Shown here in pieces: positions 250 through 60,400 of a stretch of DNA of 64,000 nucleotides (position 1 is its first letter; every line of letters starts with the position of its first letter). Position numbers and translations under genes: made by a program. The stretch is taken from contig OZ237744.1 of the NCBI GenBank assembly GCA_965178125.1, positions 1,054,001 through 1,118,000 on the forward strand, in the 5' to 3' direction. Under the pieces are notes generated by a model that had not been told where the DNA came from, searched no databases, and saw nothing but the letters and a program-made list of their open reading frames with translations. This stretch comes from Bilabrum cf. latius. Taxonomy: Eukaryota.

Positions 250-1512
250 CTCTTGACAGACGTCTTCGACACCCTGGTGGGCCAGCGCGACGAGGATCGG
301 ATCAAGGAGGCCGCCATCGCCGAGACGAGGCGGGTGGTGGAGGCCCTCGTCAAGGTGGGCTGGAAGGCAATCAACAAGAGGGCCAACAAGAGGAGGGCCA
401 CGCTGGGGGAGAGCATCGGGAGCACCCTGGGCACCACCATGCACGACTGGAGCAGTCGCAAGCAGGACATCCGCAAGAAGGTCGAGAGGCACGTCAGGAC
501 AGCCGCAGTGGAGGTGAACAAGCCAATCCTGGGCAACCTTCTGAGCGCCTACCTCATGCCCGTGTACCGCGCGCACAAGGAGTCCGTGCGGATCTACTGG
601 ACCAAGATGTCCGGCATCCTGGACCGGGGCCTCAAGGAGAGGGACCTCCGGGCCCTGTTCGAGGACACGAGGTGGGAGGACGGGTCTCTCTGCAGGGCCC
701 TGTAGATGATCCGAGCACTCACGAGGGGAGAGGTGGGCACGCCGGAGAAGCCAGACCCAGAGCTGGCACTGTGCCTCAGGGACCTGGAGGTGGACCTCCC
801 CGTCCTCCTCGAGATGATGCACGGGGTGTCTTTGTGGGAGACGGAGCGGGTGCTGGTGGCGAGCCTGCAGGAGAGCGTGGCTCGGGCCATATACTCCTTC
901 GTTGACATCGTGGAGCACGCCCCCGAGAAGATGACTCCGGAGGCCTGCTTGCACGAGGCCACTCGTCGTCTGATCGACGACTGCAAGGCCCGTGCCAAGA
1001 GGGACATATAGAAGGTACTGCTCATGATCGTGGGCCCGGCGGTGAGGAGGAGGCTCGTGCAGGTGCCGGCCGTGCAGGAGGTGCTCGCCTCTTCCGCGTA
1101 CAGCGCCACCAGACCGCTTGGAAAAGTGCCTCTGGGGCCCGGGGCGGGGATGGATCATGGCTCGGCGGCCAAAGGCGCGGCGAGCGGGGGCGCATCCTCC
1201 TCCTCGTCCGGCGCAGCGTCGGGCTCAGGATCCGGGTCGGACATCGGCAGCAGTGTCCCCGCGCCCGGGGCCGAAACGCCCATGGGCCAGCTGAAGCCCG
1301 GGGGCAGCACTGCCACTGTGGAGCGCGAGCTCAAGGCGCGCATGTACGAGGTGGGCGTGGCGGTGAGCGAAGGCTTCGTGGACGCGGACTGGCTGCTGGA
1401 CGAGGTGATCGAAGAGGACGTGATGGCGGTGCTGCGGGCGGGGACGAACGAGACGATTGACTTGATGCTGAGCCGGCTGAGCAAGCTGCCGGGCAAGCTG
1501 GGCTTCCTGTGA
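250..1512 (+). CDS. Hypothetical alpha-helical protein, last exon (5' part unresolved); weak resemblance to the Niban/FAM129 helical region
   Basis: Acceptor ...ccctcgcag ends at 249. ORFs 220-705, 706-1011 and 1024-1512 share one frame and are separated only by TAG (703-705, 1009-1011). Ends in TGA; strong GC3 bias. Confidence 0.7.
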
Positions 1513-1593
1513 GGGGGGGGAGTGAGGCGCGAGCTTGCTCGTATGGCTTTCCGCGCACATTCAAGGGAGTGTTGTCACTTGCAATCGCGCATA

Positions 1594-2128
1594 TTATGAC
1601 CCAGATCCATCTTCCATAGCTGCAGATCCTGCACTTGCTGCTGCCCCTTCCCCAGCGTCGGTTGCCTTGGCTTCACCTGCTGCTGCTGCTGGACCCTCCG
1701 TCTCGGCGTGCGTCGGAGCCTATCGTACGTAGAGCACGTTGTTGCATCGGATCAGCAGCTCTCCTAGCTTTCCCGCAAATTCACCGTCCAAAAATTCCTC
1801 GGCTTCCTGGAGCTACACGTTCATGTAGCTATCGAACGATGCTAGCTTGCCTGCGAGGCATCGAAAAGGACTAGCTGTCGATCACTCCCAAAGTAGGCAT
1901 AAAGTGGCGCAAGCGGCAGTAAAACGGTTGATCGCGGTGATTCTCACCTCGATACTCGGTACCCCATTTCAATTTCACGGCCACATTCTTGCCTACCAGG
2001 CCAGTTAGGAACGGCTTGGGGTTCACGATCATCTACGAAGCAGTAAGTAATGCGAGGGAATGCAATGACGTGGTCAGGAAGAGTGCAATCAAGGAAACCA
2101 ACAGCAAGGATGCACTTACTGTCGCCAT
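1594..2128 (-). CDS. SNRPF: Small nuclear ribonucleoprotein SmF (3 exons: 2128-2120, 2032-1948, 1850-1594)
   Basis: Spliced translation [73 protein letters not shown]... matches the SmF motifs NPKPFL, KLKWG, YMNxQL and [13 protein letters not shown] introns 2119-2033 and 1947-1851. TAG at 1813-1815 and 1720-1722; ends TAA at 1594-1596. Absent from the ORF track. Confidence 0.95.
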
Positions 2129-2234
2129 GGTAGAGCTCTCTCAACAAAAAGTGGCCTTGCTGGCTGCCGAGCAGCCTTGCGCTACAGTGCGGTAAATTTG
2201 GCAATGGGCAGAGTTGCATCACAATCACACGACA

Positions 2235-3543
2235 ATGAAGAGATAGGATGGGCGTTTACCGATATAGATTAGACCTATGAAGGCATAGCTCGGTGTTCTA
2301 GCGCGGGCAGACGGGTCTGCTCGATTCTAGTAGGGTGAGCACAGCTCAACTTTTGCTTGAAGGTACACGACGGGATCGGTATCACTCCATCGTCGCACTA
2401 CGCTCCAAAAGTCCCTACGCAGGTGATACTTCTATACTAGTAGGTATTCATGGTCCAGCTCCGCCGAAGCTGTCGAGGCTTGACGATGCTATTCGAATGT
2501 CCGTAGACGTATCGGTACGACCTGCAACTGGCCGGCCTAGCGTGGAAGACAAGACTCTTGAGGCCTACCTCATTGATGTAATCAGAGCAACCGTATTGTT
2601 GACAGAATATCCGCGGACCTAGCTAACTGTCGTGGTGCAGACGCTCTGCGACGATGGCTCGATACTCGCTGCTTCGATCTGCGCCGTAGGGCTGGCCCTA
2701 GCTGATGCAGGGGTGCAAATGCGTGGCATGCTGACGGCGTCAACGGTAGGAATTCTACCTCAGCACGCTTCAGACACCAGTTTGCCTTCATCCTCTGCAG
2801 CGGGATCGGGATCGCAGGGTAAGTTGGCAGAGGCGAGCGAGGAGCACCTGTCCCACGACGTGACAGCAGAGGAGAGCATGGCCTGCAGGGCAGCGTGCAC
2901 CGTCGCGTTCATCACAGGAACGACTGGAACCGACTTGCACTCCGTGCTCATGGACCTTAGCGGCACTTGTTCCCCGGATGAGATGGATCAGATGGACGAC
3001 GAGTTGCAGCGGGGTGCATCCACGGCCCTGTCCTTCCTGCAGGAAGCAGTAAGGGTCTGGGCGAGCACGCAGATGCTCGTGCAGGTGCCCACGATGGGAG
3101 AAGTTACCAAGCTGAGGATAAAAATCCAGGAGGGGGCAAGGGGAGCAGGGCAGGAGGACGACCTTCCCACCAGAGTTAAGCTGGAGCACTCGGCATCTCG
3201 GTCGACTGACTCTGCTACTGCCATTGCCAGTAGCAGCGGCGCAATCGCAGGCTCGGGTGCAGCCCCCATAGAGTCGGGGGACGGGTCCATCGCTGTGACG
3301 AGTGGGGCAGTCTCAGCAGAGATGGGAGCCATCGCAGGTGGGGCAAGTGTAGGGGCCAAGAAGAAGACGAGTGGGGCAGTCTCAGCAGAGGTGGGAGCCA
3401 TCGCAGGTGGGGCAAGTGTAGGGGCCAAGAAGAAGACGAGTGGGGCAGTCTCAGCAGAGATGGGAGCCATCGCAGGTGGGGCAAGTGTAGGGGCCAAGAA
3501 GAAGAAAAAGAGGAGAAAGAGAAAGTCCAAGCCTACTAGCTGA
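2235..3543 (+). CDS. EXOSC5: Exosome complex component Rrp46 (RNase PH family), intron 2335-2422, Lys-rich C-terminal tail
   Basis: MKR*DGRLPI*IRPMKA*LGVLARADGSARF**G|DTSILVGIHGP...EYPRT*LTVVVQTLCDDGSILAASI matches the Rrp46 motifs DGSAxFxQGDT, YPRT and DDGS. Six in-frame TAGs; ends TGA. Confidence 0.9.
3298..3504 (+). repeat. 69-bp tandem repeat x3 in the Rrp46 tail (TSGAVSAEMGAIAGGASVGAKKK)
   Basis: Near-identical units start at 3298, 3367 and 3436. Confidence 0.95.
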
Positions 3544-3739: not shown

Positions 3740-6700
3740 TCACTTCAAGGGATCCACTCCACCGGCATCCACAACTGCCTGCGCAAATGCACTGGATCTA
3801 ATAGCGATGGTCTGCAGCGCATTTGCAGCATATTCAGCCTCCTTGCCCTTGCTGGATCCCAGCAGACCCACAAGCCCCGCCAATGCACCTGCATCCACCA
3901 CACACTGCTTCATATCATCAGACCCTTCAGCCACATTACACAACGCCCCAGCCGCCCATTCAGCTTCCTCGCCCTTGCTGGATCCCAGCAGACCCACAAG
4001 CCCCGCCAATGCACCTGCATCCACCACACACTGCTTCATATCATCAGACCCTGCAGCCACCCTACGCAACGTCGCAGCCGCGCACTCAGCCTCCTCGCCC
4101 TTGCTGGATCCCAGCAGACCCACAAGCCCCGCCAATGCACCTGCATCCACCACTGCCTGCTTCGTACCATCAGACCCTGCAGCCACATTCCACAGTGCCC
4201 TAGCCGCGCACTCAGCCTTCTCGCCCTTGCTGGATCCGAGCAGACCCACAAGCCCCGCCAATGCGCCTGCATCCAACACACACTGCTTCATATCATCAGA
4301 CCCTGCAGCCACATTCTCAAATGCCAAAGCCGCCAATTCAGCCTCCATGCCCTTGCTGGATCCTAGCAGCCTCACCAGTCCAGGCAATGCACCTGCATCC
4401 ACCACACACTGCTTCGTACCATCAGATCCTGCAGCCACTTTGTACAACGTCGCAGCCGCGCACTCAGCCTCCCTACCCTTGCTGGACCCCAGCAGACCCA
4501 CAAGCCCCGCCAATGCACCTGCATCCACCACACACTGCTTCATACCATCAGACCCACGAGCCACATTCCACAGTGCAACAGCTGCGCACTCAGCCTCCTC
4601 GCCCTTGCTGGATCCTAGCAGACCCACAAGCCCCGCCAATGCACCTGCATCCACCACACACTGCCGCATACCATCAGACCCTTCAGCCACACTTGACAGT
4701 GTCCCGGCTGCACACTCAGCCTCCTCGCCCTTGCTGGATCCCAGCAGACCCACAAGCCCCGCCAATGCACCTGCATCTACCACACACTGCTTCCTACCAT
4801 CAGATCCTTCAGCCACATTCCAGAGAGCCGCAACCGCGCACTCAGCCTCCTCGCCCTTGCTGGATCCCAGCAGACCCACAAGCCCCGCCAATGCACCTGC
4901 ATCCACCACACACTGCTTCATACCATCAGACCCTTCAGCCACATTACGCAACGCCCCAGCCGCGCACTCAGCCTCCTCGCCCTTGCTGGATCCCAGCAGA
5001 CCCACAAGCCCACCCAATGCACCTGCATCCACCACACACTGCTTCATATCATCAGACCCTTCAGCCACATTACACAACGCCCCAGCCGCCCATTCAGCCT
5101 CCTCGCCCTTGCTGGATCCCAGCAGACCCACAAGCCCCGCCAATGCACCTGCATCCACCACACACTGCTTCATATCATCAGACCCTGCAGCCACCCTACG
5201 CAACGTCGCAGCCGCGCACTCAGCCTCCTCGCCCTTGCTGGATTCCAGCAGACCCACAAGCCCCGCCAATGCACCTGCATCCACCACTGCCTGCTTCGTA
5301 CCATCAGACCCTGCAGCCACATTCCACAGTGCCCTAGCCGCGCACTCAGCCTTCTCGCCCTTGCTGGATCCGAGCAGACCCACAAGCCCCGCCAATGCGC
5401 CTGCATCCAACACACACTGCTTCATATCATCAGACCCTGCAGCCACATTCTCAAATGCCAAAGCCGCCAACTCAGCCTCCATGCCCTTGCTGGATCCTAG
5501 CAGCCTCACCAGTTCAGGCAATGCACCTGCATCCACCACACACTGCTTCGTACCATCAGATCCTGCAGCCACTTTGTACAACGTCGCAGCCGCGCACTCA
5601 GCCTCCCTACCCTTGCTGGACCCCAGCAGACCCACAAGCCCCGCCAATGCACCTGCATCCACCACACACTGCTTCATACCATCAGACCCACGAGCCACAT
5701 TCCACAGTGCAACAGCTGCGCACTCAGCCTCTTCACCCTTGCTGGATCCCAGCAGACCCACAAGCCCCGCCAATGCACCTGCATCCACCACACACTGCCG
5801 CATACCATCAGACCCTTCAGCCACACTTGACAGTGTCCCGGCTGCACACTCAGCCTCCTCGCCCTTGCTGGATCCCAGCAGACCCACAAGCCCCGCCAAT
5901 GCACCTGCATCCACCACACACTGCACCATAGCATCAGATCCTGCAGCCAAGTTACGCAGTGCCCTAGCCGCGCACTCAGCCTCCTCGCCCTTGCTGGATC
6001 CCAGCAGACCCACAAGCCCACCCAATGCACCTGCATCCAACACACACTGCTTCATACCATCAGTACCTGCCGCCACATTCCATAGTGCCCCAGCCGCGCA
6101 CTCAGCCTCCTCGCCCTTGCCGGATCCTAGCAGACCCACAAGCCCACCCAATGCACCTGCATCCAACACACACTGCACCACACCATCAGACCCATAAGCC
6201 ACATTCCACAGTGCCCCGGCTGCGCACTCAGCCTCCTCGCCCTTGCTGGATCCCAGCAGACCCACAAGCCCCGCCAATGCACCTGCATCCACCACACACT
6301 GCTCCATACCATCAGACCCTGCAGCCACATTACGCAACGCCCCAGCCGCGCACTCAGCCTCCCTGCCCTTGCTGGATCCTAGCAGACCCACCAGTCCAGG
6401 CAATGCGCTCGCTTCCACAAACGTCGTCCGAGAGCTGCTGCACTCGTTGCATAACTCGCGAATCACGAATGCCGCCACTTCTGCGCTCGAATCAGCATCA
6501 TTGCATGCTTGCAGGCTTTGTACGATTCTAGTGACTACGCCGGCGCTCTGCAATACATTGTCCCTTACTCTTCCACGTATGTCTTCCATCAGTGCCTGCG
6601 CTCTTGACGGCAACATCACCGCTCCATCAAAGCCAGACGTCACCCGCAGCTGCCACAGCACCCGATGCACCCCATCCCAGCTCCCCCTCACCACCAGCCC

Positions 6701-8284
6701 ATCCACCACTGCCCTCACCCTGCTCACGGCTGCATCACACCCTACGCCTCCCGCCACCAATGCAGGCAGCCACTCACTGATATCGGAATCGACAGCATCT
6801 CCGGCACCATCTCGACCATTCGATCCAAGCAAACGGACCGCTTCCCCGACAGCCATCCTGTCCACAGGACGAACGCAAAGCAGGCTCTGCACCATGCTCA
6901 CATACCACGAGGGACGCTTCGATAGCTAGTCATGACCTGCCATTGGAGTCTCGCAGGCATCCAATGCAGCTGCCAGCTCGCAAGGCCTAGTCTGACTCCC
7001 GTCCTGCACACCAGATGGATACGAGTCTCCGAACGGGTGCTGCCCTCCCGTGGCCAGCTCGTGCAGCAGCACACCAAGCTCCCACGACGCCTGCTTGCCG
7101 AATGGCACGCATGCATCCATGTCTCCCGCCGCCCCCTTGTTCCACCCATCCAGCACCTCAGGGGCCAGGTGGGCCTGGTTGCCGCCCAGCCCGTCACCGC
7201 CATGCACCAGGTAGCGGTACGTGACTCGATCCAGAGCCTCCACTGCGGCTGATTCAGAAGAGCTGGCAGGACCATGGTGTGCCGCTGCAGGACCAGGCAC
7301 AGGTGGATGGGATGGAGAGGAGCCCGAGGCAGACGATGATGAAGAGGAGGAGAAAGAGTACGAGGAGGATGAGGAGGACGATGGCGGTGCTGCGCCAGTC
7401 ACAGCAGTAGCAGCAGCAGCAGACCCTGCTGCATCCACGTACACACGCAAGCAGCACCCGAGGTCGATCAGCACCGCACGCCCCACCCCCTTTGGACCAC
7501 CCCTTGAGTCCCACATCACGTTGTCCAGCTTCAGGTCACGGTGCACCACCCCGTGCTGCAGCAGGTGATGCACCCCCTCCGCGATGTCCCTCGACAGCTG
7601 CACAAGCACTTCGTCAGACAGAGACCCAGGATCGTCCCCCTCCACGATCTCCAGGTGATCGCACATGCGCCTCTGCAGCAGCTCCATGCCCACCATCTGC
7701 GCCTTGCGCGGGTGCAAAGGAGCGGGTCCATCAGCAGCCAGCACCTCCTCGTCCTCGTCATGATCGCCGTCATCGACGCACACCAGTGCAGGATTCGGCA
7801 GCATCTTCACCATCCACACGGGCGGCTTATGCACGCACTCGAACACCACCCGAGCCAGATTGCGGTGCTCGGGCAGTCGAGCGAGCACGTCGAACTCCTT
7901 CTGCGTCTCGTTGGTCTCCAGCCGGGACGTGGATAGACCCCAGTTGAACACGGCCTTCACAGCAATGTAATCATACTTGCGTCTGGAAGCTGCAGTACTG
8001 GCGCTACTGCTGCTGCTGCTAACGCTGCTGCTGCCGCTACCTCTCGGGAGCGTGACGCGAAACACTGCTCCGTGTCCGCCGTGACCGAGCAAGACAGTGC
8101 CCGATTTGGGCTTCTTGCATAGCCCCAGCAGCGGCTTGGCGAACATGCGTCTCTGAGCCTGAGTACCAGCCCTGGTCATGCGGTAAGCCTCTACGACACT
8201 TGCTGGCAGGGCGGGCAGGGGAATCGAAAGAGCATCAATGCAGCGGTTCGGTTCTGGATCGGGAGCGCTCCCTGAAGCAGCCAT
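3740..8284 (-). CDS. PINK1-like Ser/Thr kinase fused to an armadillo-repeat array
   Basis: Kinase motifs GHGGHGAV, AVKAVFN, HRDLKLDN, DLGCCL and GGNQAHLAPEV. TAG at 6926-6928 joins ORF 6926-8362 in frame to ORF 3740-6901, whose first residues (SLLCVRPVDRMAVGEAVRLL) supply kinase subdomain XI. About 21 42-aa ARM repeats follow. Confidence 0.85.
3760..6420 (-). repeat. 126-bp tandem array (~21 units) encoding armadillo repeats
   Basis: Unit VVDAGALAGLVGLLGSSKGEEAECAAGALxNVAxGSDGMKQC, highly similar at DNA level; boundaries approximate. Confidence 0.95.
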
Positions 8285-8501: not shown

Positions 8502-11500
8502 TCAGGTCGCCCGCCAGCTGCCTCGCACGTCCTCCTCTGACCGAGTCGAGTACAGGTCCAGCCGGCGAGCTCCACCTGCAGCCAGACCAGTGCCAGACAC
8601 AGCTGCGCCTCGGTGTCGTGCTGTGCCCATCGCATTGACGCCGCCACGGCTTGATGTGCCATCACCAGCAGCTGCATGATCTCCATCCCCCACGGCCCCG
8701 TACAGCACCTCCAGGACGCCCCTCCTCACCCGCTGCCTATGCGGAGACACTCCCGCCAGCCCCGCCCCTGCCCCTGTCCCTGTCCCTCCCTCGAGTCCAT
8801 CGGCCCCGCTGGCATGCCTCGCCCCATCCAGAGCCTCCGACAGACCCCCCAGCACGTCATCATGCATCGCCCCATACCCTGGACCGACACCCACGCCAGC
8901 TGATGCACACAGCGGCTCGATGCCGGCCCTGCGCGCTGTTCCCTGGGACCCTCGCCTGGGCCTGGGCACGGGCCCGGGGCCCTCCCGCCCCACGCCCAGG
9001 CTGTAGTCGACCGCGGGTGCCTGGCGCGCCCCCTGCCGAGTGGCGCGGTCGCTCGGGTGCAGCAGCGGCGCATCGGCGCGCAGGGCGACAGAGGCTCCGG
9101 ATCGAGGGGGCCTGGCCTGCAGCTTGCCGCTGGAGGGGTGCACCGCCACGGTGCCTGACCTCGCTGCGGACTCCCGGCCCGTCCTGGCAGCCATGGTCAC
9201 GTCCCTCGGCCCTGTGGGCGCCTTGCTTCCCCTGCACTGCACTGCCGCGCGCCGCACGCTGGTGGGACTCACGTCCAGCCGATCGCCGTCCCTGCCCCAT
9301 GCCGCCCCGCTGCCCGCGGGGACACCCACCCTCAGCACAGCGGCCACCTCTGCTGCCGCCTGCCTCGCTCGGAGGCTCTCTGGAGCTGCGCCCATCCCAT
9401 GGCCCACATCCAAGGCACCGGCGCGGGAGGGAATGGCCCCTGCCCCAGCCAGCCCCCACGCCAGGATGGCATCGGCAGGGCCACCATCGGACCGGCCTTG
9501 CCCCGGGCCCCTCTGCACGTCGGCTGCCTCTCCCAGCAGCACGCCCCCGTCCGTGCCAGCGGGAAGCGAGTCGTCCCTGCCTGTCGCGTTGGCCAGCGTG
9601 CTGTACCGCTGCCCCCTGCGGGCCTTGCGCACGATGGCATCGGCTGTCTCGGGGGCCAGCGGGGGCCTGCAGCCCGAGGACGTGTTCGTCTCCATCCCGT
9701 CATGCTGCCTGGATCGAGCGTCACCGGGCTGGCCCATGCTGGCTGCGGGGACACGGGGCTGGTCCGGTCTGGAGGGCAGTGGGCCGTCTCTCTATCCTCG
9801 ATCCATGCCAAGCAGGATCCTCCTGGCCTCCTGTCTGTCCCCAGGTGCTGCATCGCTCCCGGCCAGCAGTCTCTCCAGTGCTGTGCCCACCACATCCTCT
9901 GCCCCCTCCTCACGCCCTGCATCCCCTCCCATGACCCCAGCCAGGGCAGCATCCTCCGCCTCCTTGTCCAGCTGCTCAGCCACCGCGGGTCTCTCACCGT
10001 GCGGACCCACGGCCTCGTCCCGTCCCGTGGCGAGATCCAGACCGAACCTGGCAGCAGGCGCCCTGGCGTGGCCCATGGCCGCAGTGATGGCAGAGGGGGC
10101 CGCGGCCGCTGAGCTCGCGGCGTCCTGCGGCCCGCGGTCTCCCTCTCCCTGTGCCACCGCGGCTCGCCTTGCCGACTCGATGTCACCGAAACCCACACGG
10201 ATGCGGGTGACTCGGCCCGGTCGCTTGCCACCGATACTCCGCTCAGCGTCCGGAGCTCCACTGATGAGCTGCACCACAGCCACGATCCTGTCTCGACCAA
10301 GCCCCGCCTCCAGCTTCGGCACGCCTTTGCCCAGGTCGATACGGGTGGCGCGATCGGCAGACGGGCTAGGCAATGCATGCGCCCCCGCGTCCTTCATGCG
10401 TCTCTCTCCCGCCCTGGCCTCGGCTGTTCCCTCGCGGCCCGTCTGCCTGCTCATGCCGGGGGCCGATCGCCGGCCCGCGGGCAGGGGCCGCGTGGCATCC
10501 AGCGCCCTCTGCGTCTCGCCGGCGCGCTGAGCAAATTCCTTAACGGCGGCAGGGTTGGCACCATACACTCCGAAGGTCCCCACGTGTTTAACCACCGGCA
10601 GCTCCCGGTCGATTCTCGCCTTCTCCGTCTCGCTGCCACCATCCCAGTCCATCGGGTCCTCGTCCTGCAGCAGCCGATCTGCTTCTGCCAGCAGTCTGCG
10701 GAGGGTGTTCTCCTTGCCGTATCGCCTTGCAACTTCTTGGGCGCGAGCATTCGCAGGGAGTCTCGGGCCCGCGTGCTCGTGCTCGCCCTGGCCGGTGGAC
10801 ATTGCCCTGAGCGCTCTGGCTTTGCGCTTGCGCCGCTTCACCTCGGCCCTCGACTCCTTCCTGGACCTTGCCTGCCTCGCCCATGACACGCCAGTCGGGG
10901 CCTGCCGCTCCACCGCCGTGTACAGGGGCAGGTGGCCCCACTCCGGCACGTGGAAATCCCCGATGAGACGGCCGATGCGCGTAAGCAACCGCTTTCGCCT
11001 CGCACCGATTTGGCTGGGGCCGAGTGGAGCCATGGAGCCCTGCCCCTGCCTCTGCCTCTGCCTGTGCCTCTGCCTGTGCCTCTGCCTGTGCCTGAGTTGC
11101 TCCTCCCTGTCGCCCGCAGGGAGAGGCGCGATCCGGCCCCCTCTCGCCCTAGGCCTATCGCTCCTGCAGCTCGCGCCCGGGTCCCTCGCCCTGGACAGCT
11201 GCTCGGCCTCTTCTTGAAGCCGACGGAGCCTCCGGAGTGCTCGCTGCGTGGTTGAGCCATCTCCATCCTGATCGTTGTTGTCTGAACCACCACCCGTAGA
11301 TGAATTGCCCATCCGCCGTAAGTACCGCCTGAGTCCCCTCTCCACTCGCTTTCGGATGCGCCTGTCTGGGTCACGGGTGTTCGCCTTGCCGACCTACCTC
11401 TCGGTCGCTCGTTCGTCGATGGCAACCAGCAGCCTAGCGCGTTGCTGGGCCCTTAGCCTGCCGCCGATCTCCGATCCGCTGCTCTCTTCACCGCCGGTGC

Positions 11501-14500: not shown

Positions 14501-14615
14501 TACTGTGTCGGCACGTCCTCTATCGTTTGGCGGGTATGGACGTTCTTGTCCACCCATTCAGTTGGCATACCAAGTCGTCTGCTCTAGAAAGGGCAACAGC
14601 TGCGGATTGGCTCAT
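8502..14615 (-). CDS. Large low-complexity hypothetical protein (~2040 aa if unspliced)
   Basis: ORFs 13776-14381, 13041-13748, 11694-12494, 9792-11345 and 8502-9737 share one frame and are interrupted only by about 9 TAGs. First ATG at 14615; ends TGA at 8502. No recognisable domain. Confidence 0.65.
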
Positions 14616-14761: not shown

Positions 14762-15487
14762 ATGATAAATTTGTCTATGTTGCTTGCCCTAGCAATAGTT
14801 GGTACCGTTTTGGGACAAGATTTTTAGGATGAGACCTTTGCGGATGGCCAGGATGAGCCAGCTTTTGCCGATGAAGTTGGACAGAACGTGCGACCAATGG
14901 ACCGCGGATTCGAAACGGTCCAGAAGGGTGTTTTCAATGATGCAAGGACTTCAGAGTATTTGTTTGAGGCTGGCGGCATTAGAACGTTTGAGCTCCGAAC
15001 AAAGCAAGAGATCTAGAAATCCTGCAAGGCTGCTTATGCCAAGCTTTCTTACGATTTGTTGGACGTCGATGGGGATCATGATGGCATGTTGCGTCCATCA
15101 CAGCTGCTCAGCTTCGTGCACCGAGCAGTGAACCCGACCATGGATAGGTTGTTCGACGAGGAGGTGGCCCTGATTGAGGAGGCAACCGAAGCTCTCCGAA
15201 TGTAGGAAGGGCTGACGAAACCGTCCCTCGCTCTCTTTCCTGGATATTTGACTCGCGGTAAGCCTCTAAAGGCGATCATGCGGTTGATGGAGGACCTCAG
15301 AATCCTGCGGGAGGAGCTCTTGCTCGCCTCTGAGCAGGACGCCGAGCTGCGCCAAAGGCTGGAATCACCTTCCTCCGGGGTGGGGTACGCGAGGATACTG
15401 AGCGCGGAGGAGGAGCGCAGGATCGCAGAGGAGGCTGTCCTTGCCAGTGGAGGGAGCGTCGGGGGTGCAGGGGGAGGAGAGCTCTGA
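14762..15487 (+). CDS. Putative secretory/ER protein with signal peptide and EF-hand-like loop
   Basis: MINLSMLLALAIVGTVLG-QDF*DETF... is open for 241 aa with 3 TAGs. Contains DVDGDHDGML; ends ...GGEL TGA. Confidence 0.65.
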
Positions 15488-42512: not shown

Positions 42513-42640
42513 GGCGGCAATACGTGCAGCAACTGCTGCTGTTGCCGTTGGAGCGGAACCGGTCGGACAGAAAGCGCGGCGCCGGCGCAATAGAGCACTG
42601 TGGCGAGAAACTTCAGATAGAGCGCCGCGCTTGGGATAAT

Positions 42641-46332: not shown

Positions 46333-46440
46333 CTTGCGTACCTGCCGAGCAGCCACCGAGGTGCAGCAGACTCATCGCACGCAATGGCCGAATCTGCAGG
46401 AGAGTGTACAGCGATCAACAGCGCCATGGGATCAAGAGCA

Positions 46441-49151: not shown

Positions 49152-50495
49152 TCAGAACCCCACGAAGGGGTCCTTGCCCCCCTCGAACTCGGGGAGCGGC
49201 ACCTCGTCCTCCTCCTCCGGGTACGGGTCGAAGTTGCTCGTGTCCGTCTTGCCCTTCACCTTGGGCACGATGGGTGCGGGCAGCTCCCCCGCGACGAGCT
49301 TCCCAAAGTCGAAGCCCAGGAAGAACTTGTGCTCCATGATGTCGTCGGCCCCGCGCCTCAAGCAGCCGTACCTCCTCGTGAGATCCGCTGTGAGCAGCCG
49401 CTTGATGAGCGACTTGCTTCCTCTCTCGAAGTACTTGGGGAACCGCACCTTGCCCTCGATGATCTGGTTGTAGATGCCCATCGGGTCGTCGTCCACGAAC
49501 GGGGGCTGCCCCGCGAGCATCTCGAAGAGCAGGATGCCCAGGGTCCACCAGTCCACACCCTTGCCATGGCCCTTGTTCAGCAGCACCTCAGGGGCGATGT
49601 ACTCGGGCGTGCCGCACAAGGTCCACGTCTTGAACGCGACCCGCTTGGCAAAGCCGAAATCCGTAATCTTGAAGTACCCGCGCTCGTCAAGCAGCAGGTT
49701 CTCGGGCTTGAGATCTCTGTAGATGATGCTCTGCTTGTGCAGGTAATCGAAGATAGTCACGATTTGCGCCGCGTAGAACATTCCGTCCTCGTGCTTGAGC
49801 CGAGTGGCCTTGCGGAGGTGAGTAAAAAACTCGCCACCGCAAATGTACTCGATCGCCAAGTAGAGGTACCGGTCATCCTGGAACGTGCCCCCTAGCCGGA
49901 CAATAAACGGATGGTCAAGTACATCTAAGATTTCTTTTTCGGAAAGAATGTGCTCAACTTGTTGCAAGCGCACAACTTCGCATTTCTTCAACATCTTGAT
50001 CGCCCACACGCCCCCCGTGGCCTTATGCGTTGCAAATCGCACTCGTCCAAAGCTCCCAGTTCCAAGCGTTACTCCTAGTTTGAAGTCTTCGAGAGAGCAT
50101 TTTCCTAATTTCCAACCTGCAACGGGTAAACGCAAGCTTGCAAGGATGGCAATCCAGTGACTCGCTCCAAGCAGTGTCCAGAGCGCAGATGCCCATAATA
50201 TGCAATCTTCTATAGTTGAGCAGTTCTAGGTGCCATGGTGGCAATGTGGAACACATGGCACAGGGACGCATTCGCAACCTCGGGAGGCAGTTTGGTGGAT
50301 CCCGAGGCCAGCGTGAATCTAGCTACCCGTACAAACCCTTGAGGGGATGTCATAGCACGCAAGGGTATATGTCATAATGAACAGTACGAGGCGATTAAAC
50401 GCAAGCAACCCGCCAGACAAAGCAACACGATGAGGAGCAGGGTGCTGGATCTCACTAGGTTTGGCTCCCGAAGCTGCCCCAGACGCGCCTGCCAT
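49152..50495 (-). CDS. PKA-C: cAMP-dependent protein kinase catalytic subunit (intron 50455-50117)
   Basis: LGTGSFGRV, YRDLKPEN, DFGFAK, TWTLCGTPEYIAPE and DTSNFDPY. Short first exon MAGASGAASGAKP is inferred. No TAG; ends TGA. Confidence 0.95.
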
Positions 50496-50717: not shown

Positions 50718-53700
50718 ATGCTATCGCAAGATGATTCGATTGCAATATTTGATGGTCGTGCTCCTATTTAGTATTCTGGAAAGAATTTAGTTAATTTTAC
50801 CAAGGAAGCGGATCAGAGCTTGCAAGCATCAACGCGGAGAGCAACTGAGCTGCTCGCCTCGACACAAGCTGCGACCTCCAACCTAAACTAGGCGGCAAAA
50901 CGGGTGTTAAATACTTCGATTATTCCAGGAATGAGACATGATCCCTATTTTGCCGTAGCATCTAAGCCTCGTCAACGTGATATCGATCATGAGAAGTGCC
51001 AAGATCGAGCTACTGCCGGTGGTATGGAAATGCTCGGAGCGACTGAGACCCTGTTTGGTCTGGGAATCACAGTGGTTGTGAAATAGGAATGTGAGATTGC
51101 AGGACTCCCGTGCATGGCTACGGTATCACTTTCGGCCAGTTCTGCCCACCACCTTGTTTCACCCCGAATAGCGCAGCACTGTGCCTGTATCCGACCGAGG
51201 CATTGCTGCAGCTTGAAAATTTAGATGACGCGTCAAGAGCAGATCCAAGCAAGCCTGCACGGGACGAGCAAGCAACGAGCGACCGGCACTTGGATTCCCT
51301 AGACGTGCTGACGCGCGGCTAGGACGGTGAGGTGCGCCGTGTTGCTCCGATCGGATGCCTCCCGCAGTGGCCATCCCCGCTGCTCTGGGCCGATGCCCTC
51401 TCCCCTAGAGGCGGGCGCGCCCCAGGCGCCTCCTCGCCCCTGCACTCGCGCGAGCTGCGGCACCTGCTGGACAGCATTCCTGGCGCGAGGGCCGGCGGGC
51501 CCACGGAACTCCTCCACGGGCCCATCACGCAGATCGCAGCGCTGCCGCGAGTTTGCACGCCGCGCATAGGACCAAAGGCGCTTTGCTCGTGGGTGGCGGC
51601 GACCGACGGAAGGCGGGTGTGGCTGTACGGCTTTCGCGCGGACGATGCCACGAGTCCGTCTGGCCTCTCCATTGGAAGTAGCTCGGCCAGCAGCAAGCCG
51701 CGAGCTGGCAAGGTTCTGGTTGTGCCGGTTAAGCTAGATTTGCCGCCAGACCTTACGGCTGACAAACGGTCGAGCCTCGATGACGGCGTACTTCCCCCGC
51801 ACTCCGTCACTTCCATCCAGTTCACACCAGACGTTATGCTGGCCGACATGGACCGCGGCACCAAGACCACAATATACACCTAGCACGATGTCCTGGTCGT
51901 CATATCAAGGCCCATGGCCACTGCGTGGGTGCTGGTCATGCCCAAGCAAGAGGGCATGCGGACCGGCCGCGTGCAAGACTTCTCCGGGCAACACCGCGAC
52001 GTGGCGGGAGACCGCGGCCAGGCAGCAGATGCGCAGGACACCAGCACGCAGCTGGAAGTGGAGGTGCCGACAAGTAAGTCAGGCATGGCAATTCTAAGGC
52101 CCCAGTGGCAAATAGCGTGTCCAGGGCTGTCGTGCGCCACGGTACCTAGGGGGTTACGGGGCGTACGTGACAAGAATGTGTATGGGGGGAAGCCCGTCTG
52201 GCTTGGGCTATCATCGGGCGAGGTATTTGCGACAACCCTTCCGGTCCGAAGTATCTCTCGAGGATTCAACACAAAGGGGCCGCTGGTCATAAACCCCTTA
52301 GCCCAAGATGCGCAGCGGCTGTCTGCCCCAGTGGTCCATCCCCCCCTGGAGCAGTTGAGTGAAGTAGCAAGATCGCGAGGCGCGCAGCTAGAGTGTCATT
52401 GCATATGCGACTTGTCGCCTCACTAGGGTGATGTTGTGAACTGGTTGGGCGTAAATAAGCCGGCCTTGCGCGCTACGGCCAGGCCTGGTAATGACCCGGA
52501 AGATCGTCAAGCCGCCGTGGACACGATCTGGAGGTGCAGCAATGCACTTGCCCTCCGCAGCACCTTTGGTTCGTGGCTCGACACCAACGCTGGTGTCGAT
52601 CCTCGGCTGCGGACCTTCATCGAGAGCAACCATTCGCCGGAGAGTCGCGCATCTGCCTATGGAGCTCTCAGGGCTGCGCTACAAGCTGTACCCAGCCGAA
52701 AGCATAAAATTGAGACTGCACTTGCGGAGGTAGTCGCACATGGACCCGAAGATGCGTCCGCGAAGAATCGGCTTAATTTTCTGCGGCTCTCGTGGGGCAC
52801 ATTCCTCGACCATGCGAGGTCTGTGCTGGAGATGCAGCCAGCCCGAGACACTTGCCCCATGCTGGCAATAGGGTGGAGGGTTCGGATGCCGCATTCTGCG
52901 CACGCTGCGGCGCATGCTTCAATGCTCCACCGCAGACTATTGTCATTTGCGCAACGTGCGTTGCAGACGGTGCATGCTAACGTGCCATCTAGCTGGCTCC
53001 CAGAAAGCGAAGCCACTTAGGCTGCTGTCCTCATGGAGGCGCAGTCGGCTGGGTTGCGGCTGGACGCGGTGGCAGGTGACGGTTGCAACCACGTTTTTGC
53101 CGTCGCGGAGGTTGGTGTGTCTGACTGCCTGACGCCACCACCGCCAGTCCAATGGTTCACAGGCCTGGACCGGATCGATAGCGAAGTGAAGCCTCCGAGA
53201 CTTTGCGACAATGTCGATTTCAAGCAGTGGCAGTGTGGTCGCGCCACACAGAGTATGAAGCCCATGTGGAGGCTTACTCTGTTTCCAGACTTTGCTTCGA
53301 GTGGAAGTCGCACCTTGTCGCACAGTGCTCGGTGGGCCCAGCTCCTGCAGCACTGCAACCTGGGGTACAGGGCTGCATCCAGCGGGACTGGGGACGATCT
53401 GATCCGCGTAGCCGTGAGGAGCATCGCCCGGCCGGTGGTGGAGCTTAGGAGGCCCAAGTACATTCGAGCCTTTCAAGCATGCGCCTTTGCGAGATGGATG
53501 GCGCAGGACGCGCGCCGTGAGGACTAGACGAAGCACAAGGATGAAGACGGCGCTGCAGCATCCGCAGCATCACCAGGCTGGGGTGCGCCGATACCAGCGG
53601 ATGGGGCAGCAGCGATTGCGCCGGGACTAAGCACAGAGCGGGCTCTTGATGCTATCTCAAACTCGCTGGATCACATCGTTTCACGATATACCAACGACAA

Positions 53701-56264
53701 GCGGGTGCCTGCGGAGCACCTCATCATGGACTGCAGGCACCGGCTGGCATGGCTCGCCCGGGCCATGGCCCCTTGCCTTGACTCAGACGCAAAAATAGCA
53801 ATCCTTGGTGGCGCCTCTTCAGACGCGGTGGTGGCAGCTGCATAGTCGAACGATGCTAAGACTGAAGCGGGCCAGGCTGCTCCTGAGCTTGGCGCTGGTG
53901 GAGGAAGCTCCGATGAGTTGGCCCGGGACTCCAAGGCTGCAGATGCCATTCGAAATGCTGCACAACAGTACAAGGAATCCAACGCTCTGTGGGAAGTCGT
54001 GCCAGGCACGTCCTTTGGACCGCGTACCACGGAGCAGACCCTAGCTGACAGCGCTGCTCCGCTGCAGGACCCCTAGGACTGCCTCGTGATTGTACAGGGT
54101 CAGGGAGTGACGGAGGCACCAGTCGGCGCTGATCCAGCAGCAGCTGAAGGTGGGCCGCAACAATCGCCAGCACCGTGTGCCATCGATGCGATGCAGATGG
54201 TTCATGCTGCGGCGCATGGACTTCCTGCTTTGCGCAGCTCTGGTCTGCCTACCGTCGTTTCGGGAGTTGCAAAGCCCGAAGAAGATCCAGTTTCAGACCG
54301 GCCTGATCGACCGGAAGATGACGAAGATGAAGTCAGTAGCGCCGATTCGCGGGCAGCCGACGGTAGCGGCACGGACATCGACACGAAGACCCCCATGTCC
54401 GCTGAAGCATTCGCTGAACTTGTCGCGACCAGTGTATTCGGAGCTGCCTCGAGCCCGCCCACGCTGTTGCCAGGACCTGGATTGGATCCCGTCGCCCAGC
54501 TGCTGCAGCAGAAGTCAGAAGCACCAGGTCAACCGTCCGGTGCCGCATCCGCCCTGCAGCAACCAGAAGTCGCCATGGCTAGTTACTTGAGCTCACCACG
54601 ACTTGCACCGATTGTGGCCGCGCTGCAGGTGGCTCAGAAGGCCGGGCAGACTATCGCGTGCACCTCCCGGCTGCAGGCCCGATTTGACCCAGCGGCCGGC
54701 CTCGTCGTCATCGAGCACATCAGGTCGGTTCCTCGCAGCCAGGAGGCCATCGTCTCAGCTGCACTTGCATGCTTGCCCGGCATGCAGCAGGCCTTGCGCA
54801 CGATAGTCACGGATGCGACACGTTCTTGGGGAGGCCTTTTGACTTTGGCTAGAGATGCCCCGGACGGGCCTCGTGCGCTGTCGCTGGACCCTTCTGGTCT
54901 GCCTCTCCAGATGCTGTGCAACGTGCGCGTGCTCGAACCTGTACCAAGTGCTCTTTCGGGCATGCGGTTGGACCGTTGGTAGGAGCGGGTTCAGCAAGCA
55001 CAGGCGGCTTATACTCAGGCAAAACGAGCTTATTCGGCACCACAGGGTTGCTTGCGAATTCCGGGCATGGATCTACCGGGACTACCCCGACTCCCTTTAG
55101 GCGCAATACGAGGGGTTCGGCACATCATCCCAGAAATTGGAGGAGGTCACCACAAGGGCTAGCACGGCAGGGTTGGGGTGGTGGGGGGCTGCCTCTAGTA
55201 CACGGGCGCTCCCTATTATTCGGCGCACGCTTCGCTCGTGGCCGGTGCTGACCTCGCCTTTGTCTTCTGCTCCAGGGACGCAGCCATACCCATTAAGTGT
55301 TACTCTCCCGAGCTCATCGTGGTTCCTTCGTTCTCCGATCAACCCTCGGGTGACGCCTCCGCGCCAGGCTCACCAGCGGAAGCCCTGCTGCCGTATGCCT
55401 CCAAGCTGAGCGCAATGGTGGTGGGCCCCGGATTGGGCCGTTCAGAAGAAGCTGTCAGGTTTGCTAGGGCCGCCATTCACCTGGCGATCGAATCCAGGAT
55501 CCCTCTCGTGCTGGATGCCGATGCTCTCTGGGTGCTGGAGCAGGACTTGAAAGGAGGAGCAGGAGGATCAGGACGCTCGCACGATGGCGCGGAGAGCCTG
55601 AGGGAGCTGATTCAGCGCGCGACAGCGCCGGTGGTTATGACACCGAATGTGGCAGAGTTGAAACGACTGTGTGAGGCTCTCCAAGTTGCAACGGGCGAGT
55701 CCGAGTCCGAGAGAGTGGGCGAGACATCAATGAGTGGCAGCGGAGCCAGTGGTGCGACCGGCTCGGAAGGTCCCGCCAGCGGAGCTGGGTCCAGTGATCC
55801 AGCCCCTGGGGACGCGGATCCCTCCTCATCTGCCCAAGAACGGTCACTCCCCGCCAAAAATGACTTGCCCACGCGCTTTGCTCGGTCGTATCTTCGCGAG
55901 AGGTCACAAGCGCCCGGCCCCGCTGCCTTGGATGGCAGTGTTGGGGCCCCCTTACTGGCTGTGCTAGCCAAAGGACCCGCTGACAGAGTGCGCGTGGAAT
56001 ACAATTCAGGCTATGGAGACAATCACGGGGATGGCGAGGACCAAGGGGGGCAAGCGACGCACATTGGTGTATCCTCCGTGGCAGTGGATGTGCACAGCCC
56101 TTTCAGCGGTCTCAAGAGGGTTGGAGGGCAGGGTGACGTGCTGGCTGGTACTCTGGCGACTTTCCTCGGTTGGGCGTGGGGTCGGATCAAGCGAGAGCGA
56201 GCCGGTGCAAGAAGCGAGGCCTCTTCGGGATCTAGCGAGGGAGATGTGGGTGACAAGGCACCAC

Positions 56265-56299
<35 letters not shown>

Positions 56300-57154
56300 C
56301 CTGCTGGACCAGGTGAGGCTGTCGCGAGGAGCGAGGGACTGGCCTCTGCATCAACCTGCGAGGGACTGGCCTCTGCATCAACCTGCGAGGAATCCCTGAT
56401 GGCTGCCGTCCATTCGAGGCGGCTGTTCAGCGATGCTGTGTAGCAGGAGCTGGCCATGCTTGGCCTGCAGCTAGAGGCATCAGCGCAAGGGGCGCTGCCT
56501 AGACTAAGGCCGGTGGGGTATGAGATGCTCGAGCTGGGGAGGGTCATGCGTCAGTTCAAGAGCCAGAGAGGGGTGAAGCCAGCGCAAAAGCTCAGTCTGG
56601 CAGGAAGGTGGCCACAGGCTTGGGAACTTGGATACACGCAGGTGGGCACCTCGTTCTGCGACGTGGGGCCCCAACCGCCGATCGTTGCAGACACTGCGTT
56701 CCTCTGGACAAAGCAAGTGGACGCAGGTGCGGGTGCGGGTGCGGGTGCGGGTGCGGGTGCGGGTGCGGGTGCGGGTGCGGGTGCGGGTGCGGGTGCGGGT
56801 GCGGGTGCGTCACCTGGTCTCTCTGGTGCTGCGGGTCATGATCAGGTCTCTATGGGACGAATTCAGGGTGGTAGGATGGCCTATGCGTGCCAGTCCCTTG
56901 CACCGAGCAGTCAGATGCTGCAGGAGGGGCAGGGCCCCGGTACGGCGGTAGACGTGAGGCAGCCCTGTGCGGCCGTGGCGTGTGCCTGTGTGGGCGCCTC
57001 TGCAGTGGCGCGGCGGGCCTCAGCGCTGGCATACAGTAAAGCTAGGAGGGCGATGACTGCGCCCGATGTACTGAAGTGCGTGGGAGAGGCGTTTGTTGAG
57101 CTGTTTCCGGAAAGCGAGCTGGCGCCTGACCCCGCCGAGCTGGTGGGGTCGTGA
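50718..57154 (+). CDS. NAXD: Large protein: unknown N-terminal region (~1400 aa) in frame with a C-terminal ATP-dependent NAD(P)HX dehydratase domain (probable intron 51123-51211; start uncertain)
   Basis: From ~55110: IIP...HKG*HGRVGVVGGCL*YTGAPY, YSPELIV, VVGPGLGR, VLDADAL, TPNVAE and KRVGGQGDVLAG. Upstream ORFs 51110-54982 are in the same frame, separated only by TAG. The NAXD domain call is secure; the fusion is less so. Confidence 0.75.
56726..56809 (+). repeat. (GGTGCG)14 microsatellite encoding a Gly-Ala tract inside the NAXD insertion
   Basis: Perfect hexamer run visible in the sequence. Confidence 0.95.
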
Positions 57155-57458
57155 GGGGCGCGAAACTTGCCAATGCCGGCATGGTTTGATGAGAGGGAGC
57201 GGGGAGGGCTAGCCATGAATACCAATATGATTTTTGCGAATCACGTGACCCCATCCCAGTCTCATTTCGATCACGGCTGCACTGTGCTGCTGGCCGGTTC
57301 CTCGACGGTTCCTTGCCAATCAGTGACGGTTCGTCGACGAAATCCCGGCGCTACAAGGACGCATAGTCTGCATCGCCTGTGTAAATTTGAGCGGATCCCG
57401 ACGCTAATTATACCATAGGTACTTTCTTTGAGAAGCGATAGGGAAGGAACGGGACACG

Positions 57459-60400
57459 ATGGAGTCCCGAGGCAAGTCCAGTATGCTGGAGTACCGAGCC
57501 GTAAGATAAACGGATGTCTGCAGATAGCTGCTTGCCTTGATATTTGACTTGGCATATTATTAGTTTTCAGTAGTTCACGTCTCTTCTATTGGTGGGCTTG
57601 TGTCCACAGCGTGGGCCATCGGTGAAAATCCAAATTGTAAGCACCTACTGCGAATCCGTGCTCGCAGAATACAAATCTCGTGCTTTCTTCTGTTCGGGAC
57701 AGGAGATCAGGAGAGCCGACTGGAGAGGCAGAATCTTTGCGCGGCCGAATGGTAGGCAGGATGGGCGACAGGAGTGGCAGAGAGGTGCGCCCCGCATCCG
57801 AGCAGTGAGCAAGCAGTGACTGCTGGACGCCCTTTGCTCATTGCTTCTGGGCGCGAAACGCAATCCCAAACTACAGCCTTGCTTTTGTGCAATTATCTTC
57901 ACGTTTGCAGGATGGAGAGGTCCGACGATGCCAGCCCTCAGAAAGGTGCCTCTGGTCGCCAAGGCTGGGGCGCGGGTGGTGCGGCCGCTGCCCTTCGAGG
58001 CGAGGCAGCGTCTGCTGCCGTGTACAGGCCAAGCACGCAGGAAAGTGCGCAGGCCTATTCTTCCCTCCTGGGCACAGTACAGAGCATTCTGGGCGATCAG
58101 ACGCACGCCGTGCTAGAGGGCGCCTCGGACGAGGTGCTAGAGGTGCTCAAGGCCTCGGGGGTGTCCAGGCAGGACCAGGACGATGACCTAAGGGGCCTGC
58201 TGGGACCCGCGTGCACCCCGGCGGCTCTAGAGAGGCTTCGTGCCATAGTGAGCAGCATTCACGATTTCACCCCGGCTGCCGCCGCGCAGGGCATTGCGGG
58301 CACGAGCGTGGGGGCGCAGCCGCAGACCAGCCAGATTCAAGTGGCGGTGGCGCTGGGCGAAGACGGGGACCGGGACAAGGACGGCAAGGACCAGGGACAG
58401 GGTGGAGAGGACGCCGGGGCAACCCAGTACAGCCGACACGTGGTGGAGGAGGAGGAGGTAGACGTGGAGGCGCTGCAGAGGCTGCAGCACGGGGCCGGGG
58501 CGAGCACTCGCGCCGCCTCGGGTGCTGGGTCGGACGCCGCCCCGTCCGCAGCCATGGAGGGCAGTGACGGGGCCGTGGACGCGAAGGTGGGGGACTCGAA
58601 AGGAGCCGCGGGGGCCCGCGCTCGGCTGGATCCCGCCTCCATCGACGGTTTCTGGATTCAGAGGCAGCTGCAGGAGCACTACCCCGACGAGGCAGAGGCG
58701 GCCGCCCTCGGCGACTAGATTTTGGAGGCGCTGGGGATGCCTGACGAGCGGGACGCGGAGAACGAGGTGGTCGCGCTGCTGGACTACGACAAGATGCAGC
58801 TGGCCGGGAGGCTGCTGCGGGAGCGCCTCTTGATCCACTACGCAGTGAGGCTGAGGCGGGCGGGCCAGGGGCCGGCGAGGGCGGCTGTGGTGAAGGAGAT
58901 GCAGGGAACCACGAGGGGGCAGCAGGTCCTGGCGAGGATCGAGGGGGAGACGAAAAGGGCCGGTGAGGAAGGTATGCAGGGGTCCGAGGTGCCCGCGGGC
59001 GATGGCATGCCGCCCCCCTCTGCCCCCATGGAAGGGGAAGGGGGCACGGGCGGCGAGTCGAGCCGCGAGGACACCAACGAGGGGATTCGAAGCGGCGCCA
59101 CTGGTGCCCTTAAGGGCTTAGATGCCGACGGTCTCGCGGGCTCCACACCAGCGGATCAGCGGCAAATGCTGGACCTCAAGCAGATGGCCTTCAAGGAGGC
59201 CGGCAGGACGCTCACCAACCCCGAGGTGGATCTGCCGGAGGGCAGCTGGCAGCGGGAGCAGCAGGGATACACGGAGATCCACGTGCCCGCCCCCAAGGCG
59301 CCCCCGATGGCGGAGGGGGAGCGGCTGGTAGACATCTCTGAGATTCCTGCGTGGGCGCAGCACGGCTTCACGGGGGTGCAGAGGCTGAACCGCGTGCAGT
59401 CGAGGCTGTACCCGGCAGCTCTCGGCCGCGCGGAGAATCTGCTCGTGTGCGCTCCCACGGGTGCGGGAAAGACCAACGTTGCGGTGCTTTCCATCCTGCA
59501 GGCCATAGGGCAGGACGGCGGGGCCAGCTCGGCCCCCACCCTTCCTCTCGATCCCGACACGGGTCTGCCTCGCGGCGGGGGGCCTGGCACGGGCATGGGT
59601 ACCAGCGGGCTCAAGATCAACGCGGACGATTTCAAGGTGGTGTACATCGCTCCCATGAAGGCTCTGGTGCAGGAGGTGGTCCACCGCTTTCAGAAGAGGA
59701 TCGGAGAGCCGTATGGGCTCAGGGTGCGGGAGCTGAGCGGTGACGCCAGCCTGTCCCGTCGCGAGCTGCAGGAGACGCAGATCATCGTGACCACACCAGA
59801 AAAGTGGGACATCGTGACTCGGAAGGCAGGAGAGCGTAGCTACGCCGCTCTGGTGCGGCTGATCATCATCGACGAGGTGCACCTGCTGCACGACTCCCGG
59901 GGGCCGGTCCTCGAGGCCATCGTGGCGAGGACCATACGACAGGTCGAGGAGACCAGGAAGCACGTGCGGATCGTGGGTCTGTCGGCAACCCTGCCCAACT
60001 ACACTGACGTGGCAGCCTTCCTCCGCGTGCACCAGGACACGGGTCTCTTCCACTTTGACAACTCGTACCGGCCGTGCCCCTTGCAGCAGCAGTTCATCGG
60101 CATGTCCGAGAAGAAGCCCCTCCGCCGCCTGCAGGCCATGAACAAGCTCTGCTACGACAGGGTGAAGAGCGCCGCGGCCAAGCAGGAGCAGGTGCTCGTG
60201 TTTGTGCACTCGCGCAAGGAGGCCGCTCGCACGGCCGCGACCCTCCGGGACATGGCAGTGGAGGAGGGCGTGATCGATCGATTCGTGGCGGACGGGGGTG
60301 CCTCGCAGCTGATTCTGCAGGAGCAGGCGGGCAGTGCCAAGAACGAGGCACTGCGAGACCTCCTTCCCTACGGGTTCGCCTTCCACCACGCCGGATTGGC

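Follow-up and report, generated by a model that had tools for sequence, protein, structure and literature searches.

UAG without UAA is reported to specify glutamine (Gln, Q) in Iotanema spirale, Protocruzia tuzeti and two phyllopharyngean ciliate lineages, leucine (Leu, L) in the rhizarian exLh and some phyllopharyngeans, serine (Ser, S) in Scotinosphaera and glutamate (Glu, E) in the ciliate PL0344 (PMC11687900). According to the same source, UAG and UAA together (UAR; NCBI table 6) specify Gln in many ciliates, in Ulvophyceae, and in Hexamita, Streblomastix and Amoeboaphelidium (PMC11687900). Iotanema, a member of the Fornicata, was described by Panek et al. 2017 as reading nuclear UAG as Gln and keeping UAA as a stop (PMC5304391). 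The DNA analyzed here, referred to as the window, is a 64-kb stretch of eukaryotic nuclear DNA (contig OZ237744.1 of assembly GCA_965178125.1, Bilabrum cf. latius, positions 1,054,001 to 1,118,000), which is 56-73% guanine plus cytosine (GC), carries genes on both strands, and has protein-coding frames interspersed with TAG triplets. In this window UAG very probably functions as an ordinary, rather rare Gln sense codon and not as a terminator, with UGA responsible for nearly all termination and UAA not used as sense.

The distribution of stop triplets was determined in frames defined with only TAA and TGA as stops, and gene models were trimmed to likely starts. The 14 long frames (17,192 codons) contain 71 TAG, no TAA and no internal TGA, and the gene models, to which the short SmF, Rrp46 and Mak16 exons were added (16,981 codons), contain 74 TAG, again with no TAA and no internal TGA. 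A sequence-only reading of the same DNA had put the number of in-frame TAGs at 85-90 in 17 genes; their abundance was borne out, with the count corrected to 74 and the number of affected genes to 15 of about 19 gene-like frames. Its description of the frames as intact held, no frameshift being found, and so did its claim of an open frame of 12.8 kb, which runs through 4274 codons at 29364-42188 (-) with 11 TAGs. In the two off-frames of the 14 long-frame stretches, TAG occurs 91 and 96 times, TAA 29 and 48 times and TGA 254 and 290 times; the in-frame density of TAG is thus about 76% of its off-frame density, and in-frame TAA and TGA are fully excluded. The frame at 44749-46332 (+) has a flat GC content by codon position, yet it is free of TAA and TGA, which, counted together, number 11 and 10 in its two alternative frames.

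As a codon, TAG has a share of about 0.44% among all codons and of about 10% among those of Gln type. The base that follows it is A, C, G and T at frequencies of.23,.31,.35 and.11, resembling the base after CAG and hence not indicative of a leaky-stop or readthrough context. TAG density tracks the synonymous use of A and T, with marked contrasts among neighboring genes. GC content at third codon positions (GC3) is 0.82-0.87 in the genes for the actin-related protein Arp3, tyrosyl-tRNA synthetase (TyrRS) and the helicase Brr2 and in the frame at 148-1512, and lower, 0.60-0.70, in Rrp46, a WD40 protein, the NAXD frame and Mak16, with TAG and CAA use split likewise. The genes rich in CAA (WD40, a frame of 2038 codons, NAXD and TMEM175) are also rich in TAG, and Brr2, TyrRS and Arp3, with their high GC3, have at most one TAG each.

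Several TAGs fall in motifs recognized by the sequence-only reading, and the motifs were found exactly as it had given them (x denoting the residue at TAG). In the gene for SmF (1594..2030, (-); two exons with a GTGAG...CAG intron), the TAG at 1813-1815 lies in YMNVxL and aligns with Q in 5/5 PDB SmF alignments among the matches listed, a limit that applies also to the Mak16 columns below; the LSM match of the protein in Pfam reaches 50.6 bits with TAG read as Q. In Mak16 (16902..17780, (-); at least three exons), the TAG at 17600-17602 lies in GNxVMCRN, a column with Q in 68, G in 22, K in 10 and neither E nor D in any of 114 homologs, these being the matches of at least 250 amino acids out of 120 listed, with fragment P0001 from a close relative (see below) excluded. 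In the NAXD frame (51836..57154, (+)), the TAG at 55160-55162 lies in HHKGx, where a fungal enzyme has Q and that of Thermotoga has T; a second TAG, at 55196-55198, lies in GGCLxYTG. In Rrp46 (2235..3543, (+)), the motif DGSARFxx G|DT is formed by splicing over a GTGAG...CAG intron, with TAGs at 2328-2333. The PDB alignments at the Rrp46, Brr2 and NAXD sites show variable columns that do not settle the residue. Skipping of the codon, or removal of TAG in tiny introns, was considered and ruled out by the TAGs of SmF, Mak16, NAXD and Brr2, which fall within ungapped homolog alignments, one TAG corresponding to one residue.

Because single ortholog columns gave a mixed picture, Pfam profiles were applied in the manner of Codetta, with TAG read as each of 8 residues in 8 window segments comprising 10-11 TAG sites (SmF exon 2, Mak16 exons 2 and 3, Rrp46 exons 1 and 2, NAXD, the PWI domain of Brr2, and Band 7). 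The summed bit scores for the main family in each segment were highest for Q (463.7), followed by E (456.8), K (455.4), S (452.9) and R (452.8); Y reached 440.5, L no more than 443 and W no more than 434. Q was top or tied in seven of the eight segments, with E ahead by 0.5 bit in the PWI domain. A segment of the WD40 protein, scored with the WDR3 model for Q and E only (40.5 vs 39.6), was excluded from the sums.

A second line of evidence comes from relatives of the window in metagenomes, where two contigs, L001 and L002, were found to carry Brr2 (SNRNP200), the helicase gene that occupies 57912..63998 (+) in the window and is truncated by its end; a metagenome scan with Rrp46 as query found no relative. 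L001 and L002 are separate records, 99.9% identical over 1058 nucleotides, and their Brr2 genes show 79% nucleotide identity to the window, with amino-acid identities of 874/1028 (L001) and 311/346 (L002). The L001 frame has 1044 open codons with 12 TAG, and the L002 frame 352 open codons with 4 TAG, in both cases with no TAA and no TGA; all four TAGs of L002 are common to L001 in the overlap. The ratio of nonsynonymous to synonymous substitution (dN/dS) between window and L001 is 0.08 (dS about 1.5), indicating strong selection on Brr2 in both organisms. At ten well-aligned sites the TAGs of L001 face CAG six times, GAG twice, and CAC and AAG once each in the window; in two poorly aligned stretches they face GCC and GGT. 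One L001 site, in WIxRQL, corresponds to Q in window, nematode and human Brr2, and six others to D, E, G, K, R and Q in the human protein, so that most L001 TAG sites are variable columns.

These Brr2 genes bear directly on the possibility that the TAGs mark decaying pseudogenes or errors of base calling or assembly, an explanation with nothing in its favor beyond the mere presence of stop triplets and so improbable as to be negligible. Mass pseudogenization, judged implausible in the sequence-only reading, is indeed at odds with a dN/dS of 0.08 between two partners that both carry TAGs, and with the absence of frameshifts, TAA and TGA from 16,981 codons. Damage or error is also contradicted by the TAGs held in common by two separate metagenome records, and by the ORFs (open reading frames) of a third assembly, which are interrupted in these genes by in-frame stops.

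The residue favored in L001 is again Gln. Over 7 in-domain TAG sites of its Brr2, scored for 10 residues, the Pfam sums were Q 476.2, K 470.5, E 468.5, N 467.6, R 467.3, S 466.0, H 465.8, D 465.7, Y 457.9 and L 454.8. UAG as Glu, Leu, Ser, Tyr or Trp thus scores below Q in the window, as do the first four in L001, the deficits relative to Gln being at least 20 bits for Leu, 10.8 for Ser and 6.9 for Glu in the window, and 21.4, 10.2 and 7.7 bits, respectively, in L001. A substitution likelihood for Brr2 between window and L001, covering all 20 residues, gave Q +13.1 bits, K -17.8 and E -20.0, values that depend on the pseudocount, the model being built from substitution counts of the same alignment, so that the ranking is the result.

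A closer relative is represented in the public protein collection only by ORF fragments (P0001, P0121-P0129 and P0136). These are 79-91% identical to three fast-evolving frames of the window, at 8502-14615 (2038 codons; 79-85%), 24102-27500 (WD40) and 29364-42122 (the giant frame; 88-91%), and 95% identical to the C-terminus of Mak16. The fragments begin at internal ATG or GTG codons and finish at in-frame stops. The genes of this relative are broken by the use of the standard or bacterial code in gene calling. A likelihood computed for the 18 window TAG sites covered by the fragments, again over 20 residues, ranked Q best (-12.1 bits; E -31.1), the negative score for Q indicating a greater divergence at TAG positions than at those of any ordinary residue. 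On the evidence of these sequences, three related organisms decode UAG as a single residue for which Gln is the best fit, and the assignment to Gln made in the sequence-only reading came out best in every test run, whether by profile scores, by ortholog columns or by the pairing of codons with those of relatives.

Several observations weigh against this assignment. The second Mak16 TAG (17301-17303, DExLQYWP) falls in a column with H in 58, F in 22, N in 14 and Q in 13 of the 114 homologs. The second NAXD site (CLxY) is D or L in homologs, the PRTx site of Rrp46 is S, T or E, and the only TAG of window Brr2 (58716-58718, in the PWI domain) corresponds to E in the nematode and human proteins and faces AAG (K) in L001. 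The proposal that TAG occupies known Gln positions holds for SmF, the GNx site of Mak16 and HKGx of NAXD, and has to be softened in view of Brr2 PWI, the second NAXD site and Rrp46 PRTx, which are variable or of Glu/Asp type; the NAXD site at 55196, flagged as usually Glu, is indeed not of Gln type, with D or L in place of Glu. The profile tests were confined to 8 residues in the window and 10 in L001. In the close relative, the 18 window TAGs correspond to Q six times, E five times, W twice, and K, S, L, R and P once each (two of these sites, one P and one E, adjoin indels), and the relative's own internal stops correspond to GAG three or four times in the window, to TCA, CTG and TAG once each, and never to CAG. 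Finally, no tRNA gene was found by a tRNA scan of the 64-kb window.

Such a pattern would be accommodated if UAG were sense without being cleanly Gln, being read as Glu or Lys, or as a near-cognate mixture in which Gln predominates after the loss of recognition by eRF1. In every test E comes second or nearly so, the close relative pairs TAG with E about as often as with Q (5 vs 6) besides having the three or four stops on window GAG, and ambiguous decoding at tolerant sites predicts the low conservation of TAG sites, where Q is kept at 6/18 positions compared with 114/129 for ordinary Gln codons in the same alignments (overall identity 3006/3450). This explanation is nevertheless quite unlikely, as the margin of Q over E is 6.9 bits (window) and 7.7 bits (L001) in the profiles and 19-33 bits in the likelihoods, the SmF and Mak16 GNx columns are dominated by Q without acidic residues, and the partners of TAG are its single-base neighbors, as expected of young mutations under any code.

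The changes between TAG and these neighbors are mostly from A/T to G/C, and codon identity to the relative falls with the A/T content of the codon, from 90-91% for codons with none or one A/T to 79% with two and 60% with three. Simple TAG-to-CAG synonymy with the close relative had been expected, and the mixed partners found are uninformative by themselves. In the WD40 gene, the fragments of the relative span 88% of the length, so at most two of the 12 window TAGs could be shared. The rarity with which TAG sites are shared with the close relative reflects ascertainment in part, since a TAG common to both genomes splits the ORF of the relative and goes uncounted. With UAG as Gln, the codons may arise continually at tolerant sites by GC-to-AT mutation, survive because UAG is decoded, and then be quickly removed, whether because selection disfavors a codon that is still inefficient or through GC-biased conversion. 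The speed with which UAG codons turn over between close relatives is what most deserves attention in this case.

The ends of the genes indicate which triplets remain as stops. TGA ends 16 of the 17 frames that finish in the window (14/14 long frames and two short ones), and TAA ends SmF only (1594-1596). No frame in the window needs TAG as a stop. If TAA and TAG stood in the same proportion as CAA and CAG (105:538), 14.4 TAA would be expected in coding codons, and none was observed (Poisson ~6e-7); treating TAA as sense lengthens real frames only into 5' leaders. The absence of TAA against this expectation, together with the TAA that ends SmF, distinguishes the code from NCBI table 6. UAA is thereby shown not to have taken on the new meaning of UAG.

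Whether UAG might be a context-dependent codon, sense inside genes and a stop near some 3' ends as in codes of the Condylostoma or Blastocrithidia type, depends on the same gene ends. One TAG of SmF (1720-1722) comes directly after the Sm domain (LYVRx) and is followed by a 41-residue tail, low in complexity and unconserved, that runs to the TAA; moreover, the frames are bounded by TGA or TAA, making a terminating TAG invisible by construction. Where C-termini can be judged by homology, however, the terminating triplet is TGA and no TAG closely precedes it, as seen for Arp3, TyrRS, a PKA-like kinase and the giant frame, the last of which ends at the same TGA as fragment P0122 of the relative. 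TAGs are spread along the full length of genes, one lying 39 codons upstream of the TGA of the WD40 frame, and no special base follows them. Context-dependent termination at UAG is unlikely, the SmF TAG being ambiguous and the one hint of it.

Repair of the transcripts could also leave TAG in the genes, either by U-to-C editing of UAG to CAG or by A-to-I editing of UAG to UGG, and the former would likewise place Q at conserved sites. U-to-C repair in plant organelles also acts on TAA and TGA, neither of which is in frame here. The product of A-to-I editing would be Trp, the residue that scores worst in the profile test. Editing would moreover be needed at about 1 codon in 230 in the nuclear genes of three organisms, a rate for which, to our knowledge, there is no precedent. 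This explanation is very improbable.

For an ordinary Gln codon UAG, decoding would require a tRNA-Gln with the anticodon CUA, a single base change from CUG, which would read UAG but not UAA, and an eRF1 that would have lost recognition of UAG while keeping that of UGA and probably of UAA. Both components are proposed because they are known from other lineages with UAG reassigned to Gln. The CUA form is one mutation away from tRNA-Gln(CUG) and in Tetrahymena reads UAG and not UAA, and the eRF1 of Iotanema carries an N-domain change, T32G, in the GTS motif, as reported by Panek et al. (PMC5304391). The sequence-only reading had placed the genes for tRNA-Gln(CUA) and the altered eRF1 outside the window, in agreement with the tRNA scan and with the absence of eRF1 among the window genes, and an Rfam scan of the 64 kb likewise found no match to any family.

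The genes themselves, identified by Pfam and PDB searches of the window frames, contain a small number of short introns of the GT...AG type, whose donors read GTGAG in SmF and Rrp46. Rrp46, of RNase PH fold, comprises exon 1 (2235-2334) and exon 2 (from about 2422) and ends at TGA, with TAGs at 2244, 2265, 2286, 2328 and 2331 in exon 1 and at 2620-2622 in exon 2. The five TAGs in the first 34 codons (2235-2334, (+)), two of them adjacent, form the window's densest cluster by a wide margin. Its tail (3297-3505, (+)) contains three copies, 98% alike, of a 69-nucleotide unit, followed by a lysine- and arginine-rich end. At 3740..8284 (-) lies a protein kinase with about 20 armadillo repeats of 126 nucleotides each and a single TAG; the tandem array (3834-6406, (-); 20.4 copies, 86% alike) is fused behind the kinase domain, and the near identity of its multi-repeat blocks suggests that they were duplicated recently.

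Three long frames have no Pfam family: the frame of 2038 codons (8502..14615, (-)) with 9 TAG, the intron-free giant frame of 4253 codons (29364..42122, (-)) with 11 TAG, and the frame of 528 codons (44749..46332, (+)) with 11 TAG. The giant frame, in its open extent of 4274 codons, is rich in runs of GK, A and S. A short frame of 242 codons (14762..15487, (+)), also without a family, has a signal-peptide-like start and 3 TAG. The SPFH/Band 7 domain frame (18777..19496, (-)), with one TAG at 19170-19172, had no match in the PDB search. The WD40 protein (24102..27500, (-)) has 1133 codons and 12 TAG, and the TMEM175-like channel protein (46441..48819, (-)) has 3 TAG, none inside its Pfam matches. 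TAG is absent from the Arp3-like gene (27711..28916, (-); ending at TGA), from the coding part of TyrRS (42467..44140, (+); ending at TGA) and from the kinase part of the AGC-type, PKA-like protein kinase (49152..50099, (-)), which has an FxxF-type C-terminus followed by TGA. The NAXD (Carb_kinase) frame has 1773 codons with 10 TAG, a long stretch of unknown function preceding NAXD; the surrounding 51095-57154 (+) is open for 2019 codons, with about 1,300 residues before NAXD and an (AG)n run encoded by GA dinucleotides after it, and represents either a fusion protein or adjacent genes without an intervening TGA.

The affiliation of the lineage was approached through Mak16 and TyrRS. The nearest named Mak16 relatives among the matches listed, at about 60% identity, belong to plants, green algae, cryptophytes and oomycetes. 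In a quick Mak16 tree the window falls in loose association with red-algal, cryptophyte and oomycete sequences, outside green plants, on a branch measuring 1.54 changes per site and with no supported sister group. The nearest TyrRS clusters in the protein atlas are all of plant type, which amounts to no more than a lead.

Taken together, the data point to a genuine UAG-only nuclear stop-to-sense change, most probably to Gln, common to at least three sampled relatives. Such a change is of a known but rare kind, and the window would add a new member unless its lineage has already been described; the literature consulted yielded no GC-rich non-ciliate organism with UAG alone read as Gln besides Iotanema, with the supplementary tables possibly listing further taxa. 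A more specific interpretation is put forward tentatively, as possible though rather doubtful: that an independent UAG-only change to Gln took place in an unrecognized GC-rich non-ciliate lineage, of which at least three members have been sampled, and that it may be at an early or still costly stage. On this reading the UAG codons are young, rarely shared between close relatives and scarce in strongly codon-biased genes, and UGA has become almost the sole terminator.

Among variants of the nuclear code, those separating UAG from UAA belong to the rarest, only a handful of lineages being reported in the two sources cited here (PMC11687900, PMC5304391). A further lineage, available as genomic DNA and with relatives at two depths, would permit the gain and loss of UAG codons to be dated, would let one ask whether GC pressure helped to free UAG, and would allow its eRF1 and tRNA-Gln solutions to be compared with those of Iotanema and ciliates. 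There is also a practical consequence, in that gene callers using the standard code cut the proteins of this lineage into pieces.

Among described systems, Iotanema resembles the window in being a non-ciliate with only UAG reassigned, to Gln, and with in-frame UAG at conserved Gln positions; the mechanism proposed for it combines a tRNA-Gln(CUA) derived from CUG with the T32G change in eRF1, and it is known from a transcriptome (PMC5304391), whereas the window is genomic DNA. The UAG-only ciliates (phyllopharyngeans and Protocruzia tuzeti; McGowan et al. 2024, PMC11687900) are reported to have the same code table, with UAG as Gln and UAA not Gln. Unlike ciliates, however, the window consists of multi-gene, GC-rich chromosomal DNA with short spliceosomal introns and genes of up to 12.8 kb, and its nearest protein relatives are not ciliates. 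The UAR codes likewise convert stops to Gln, through a mutated tRNA-Gln anticodon (PMC11687900), but differ from the window, which has no TAA among its 16,981 coding codons and uses TAA to end SmF. In the codes that read UAG as Leu, Ser or Glu, UAG is likewise uncoupled from UAA, but those residues score below Gln here.

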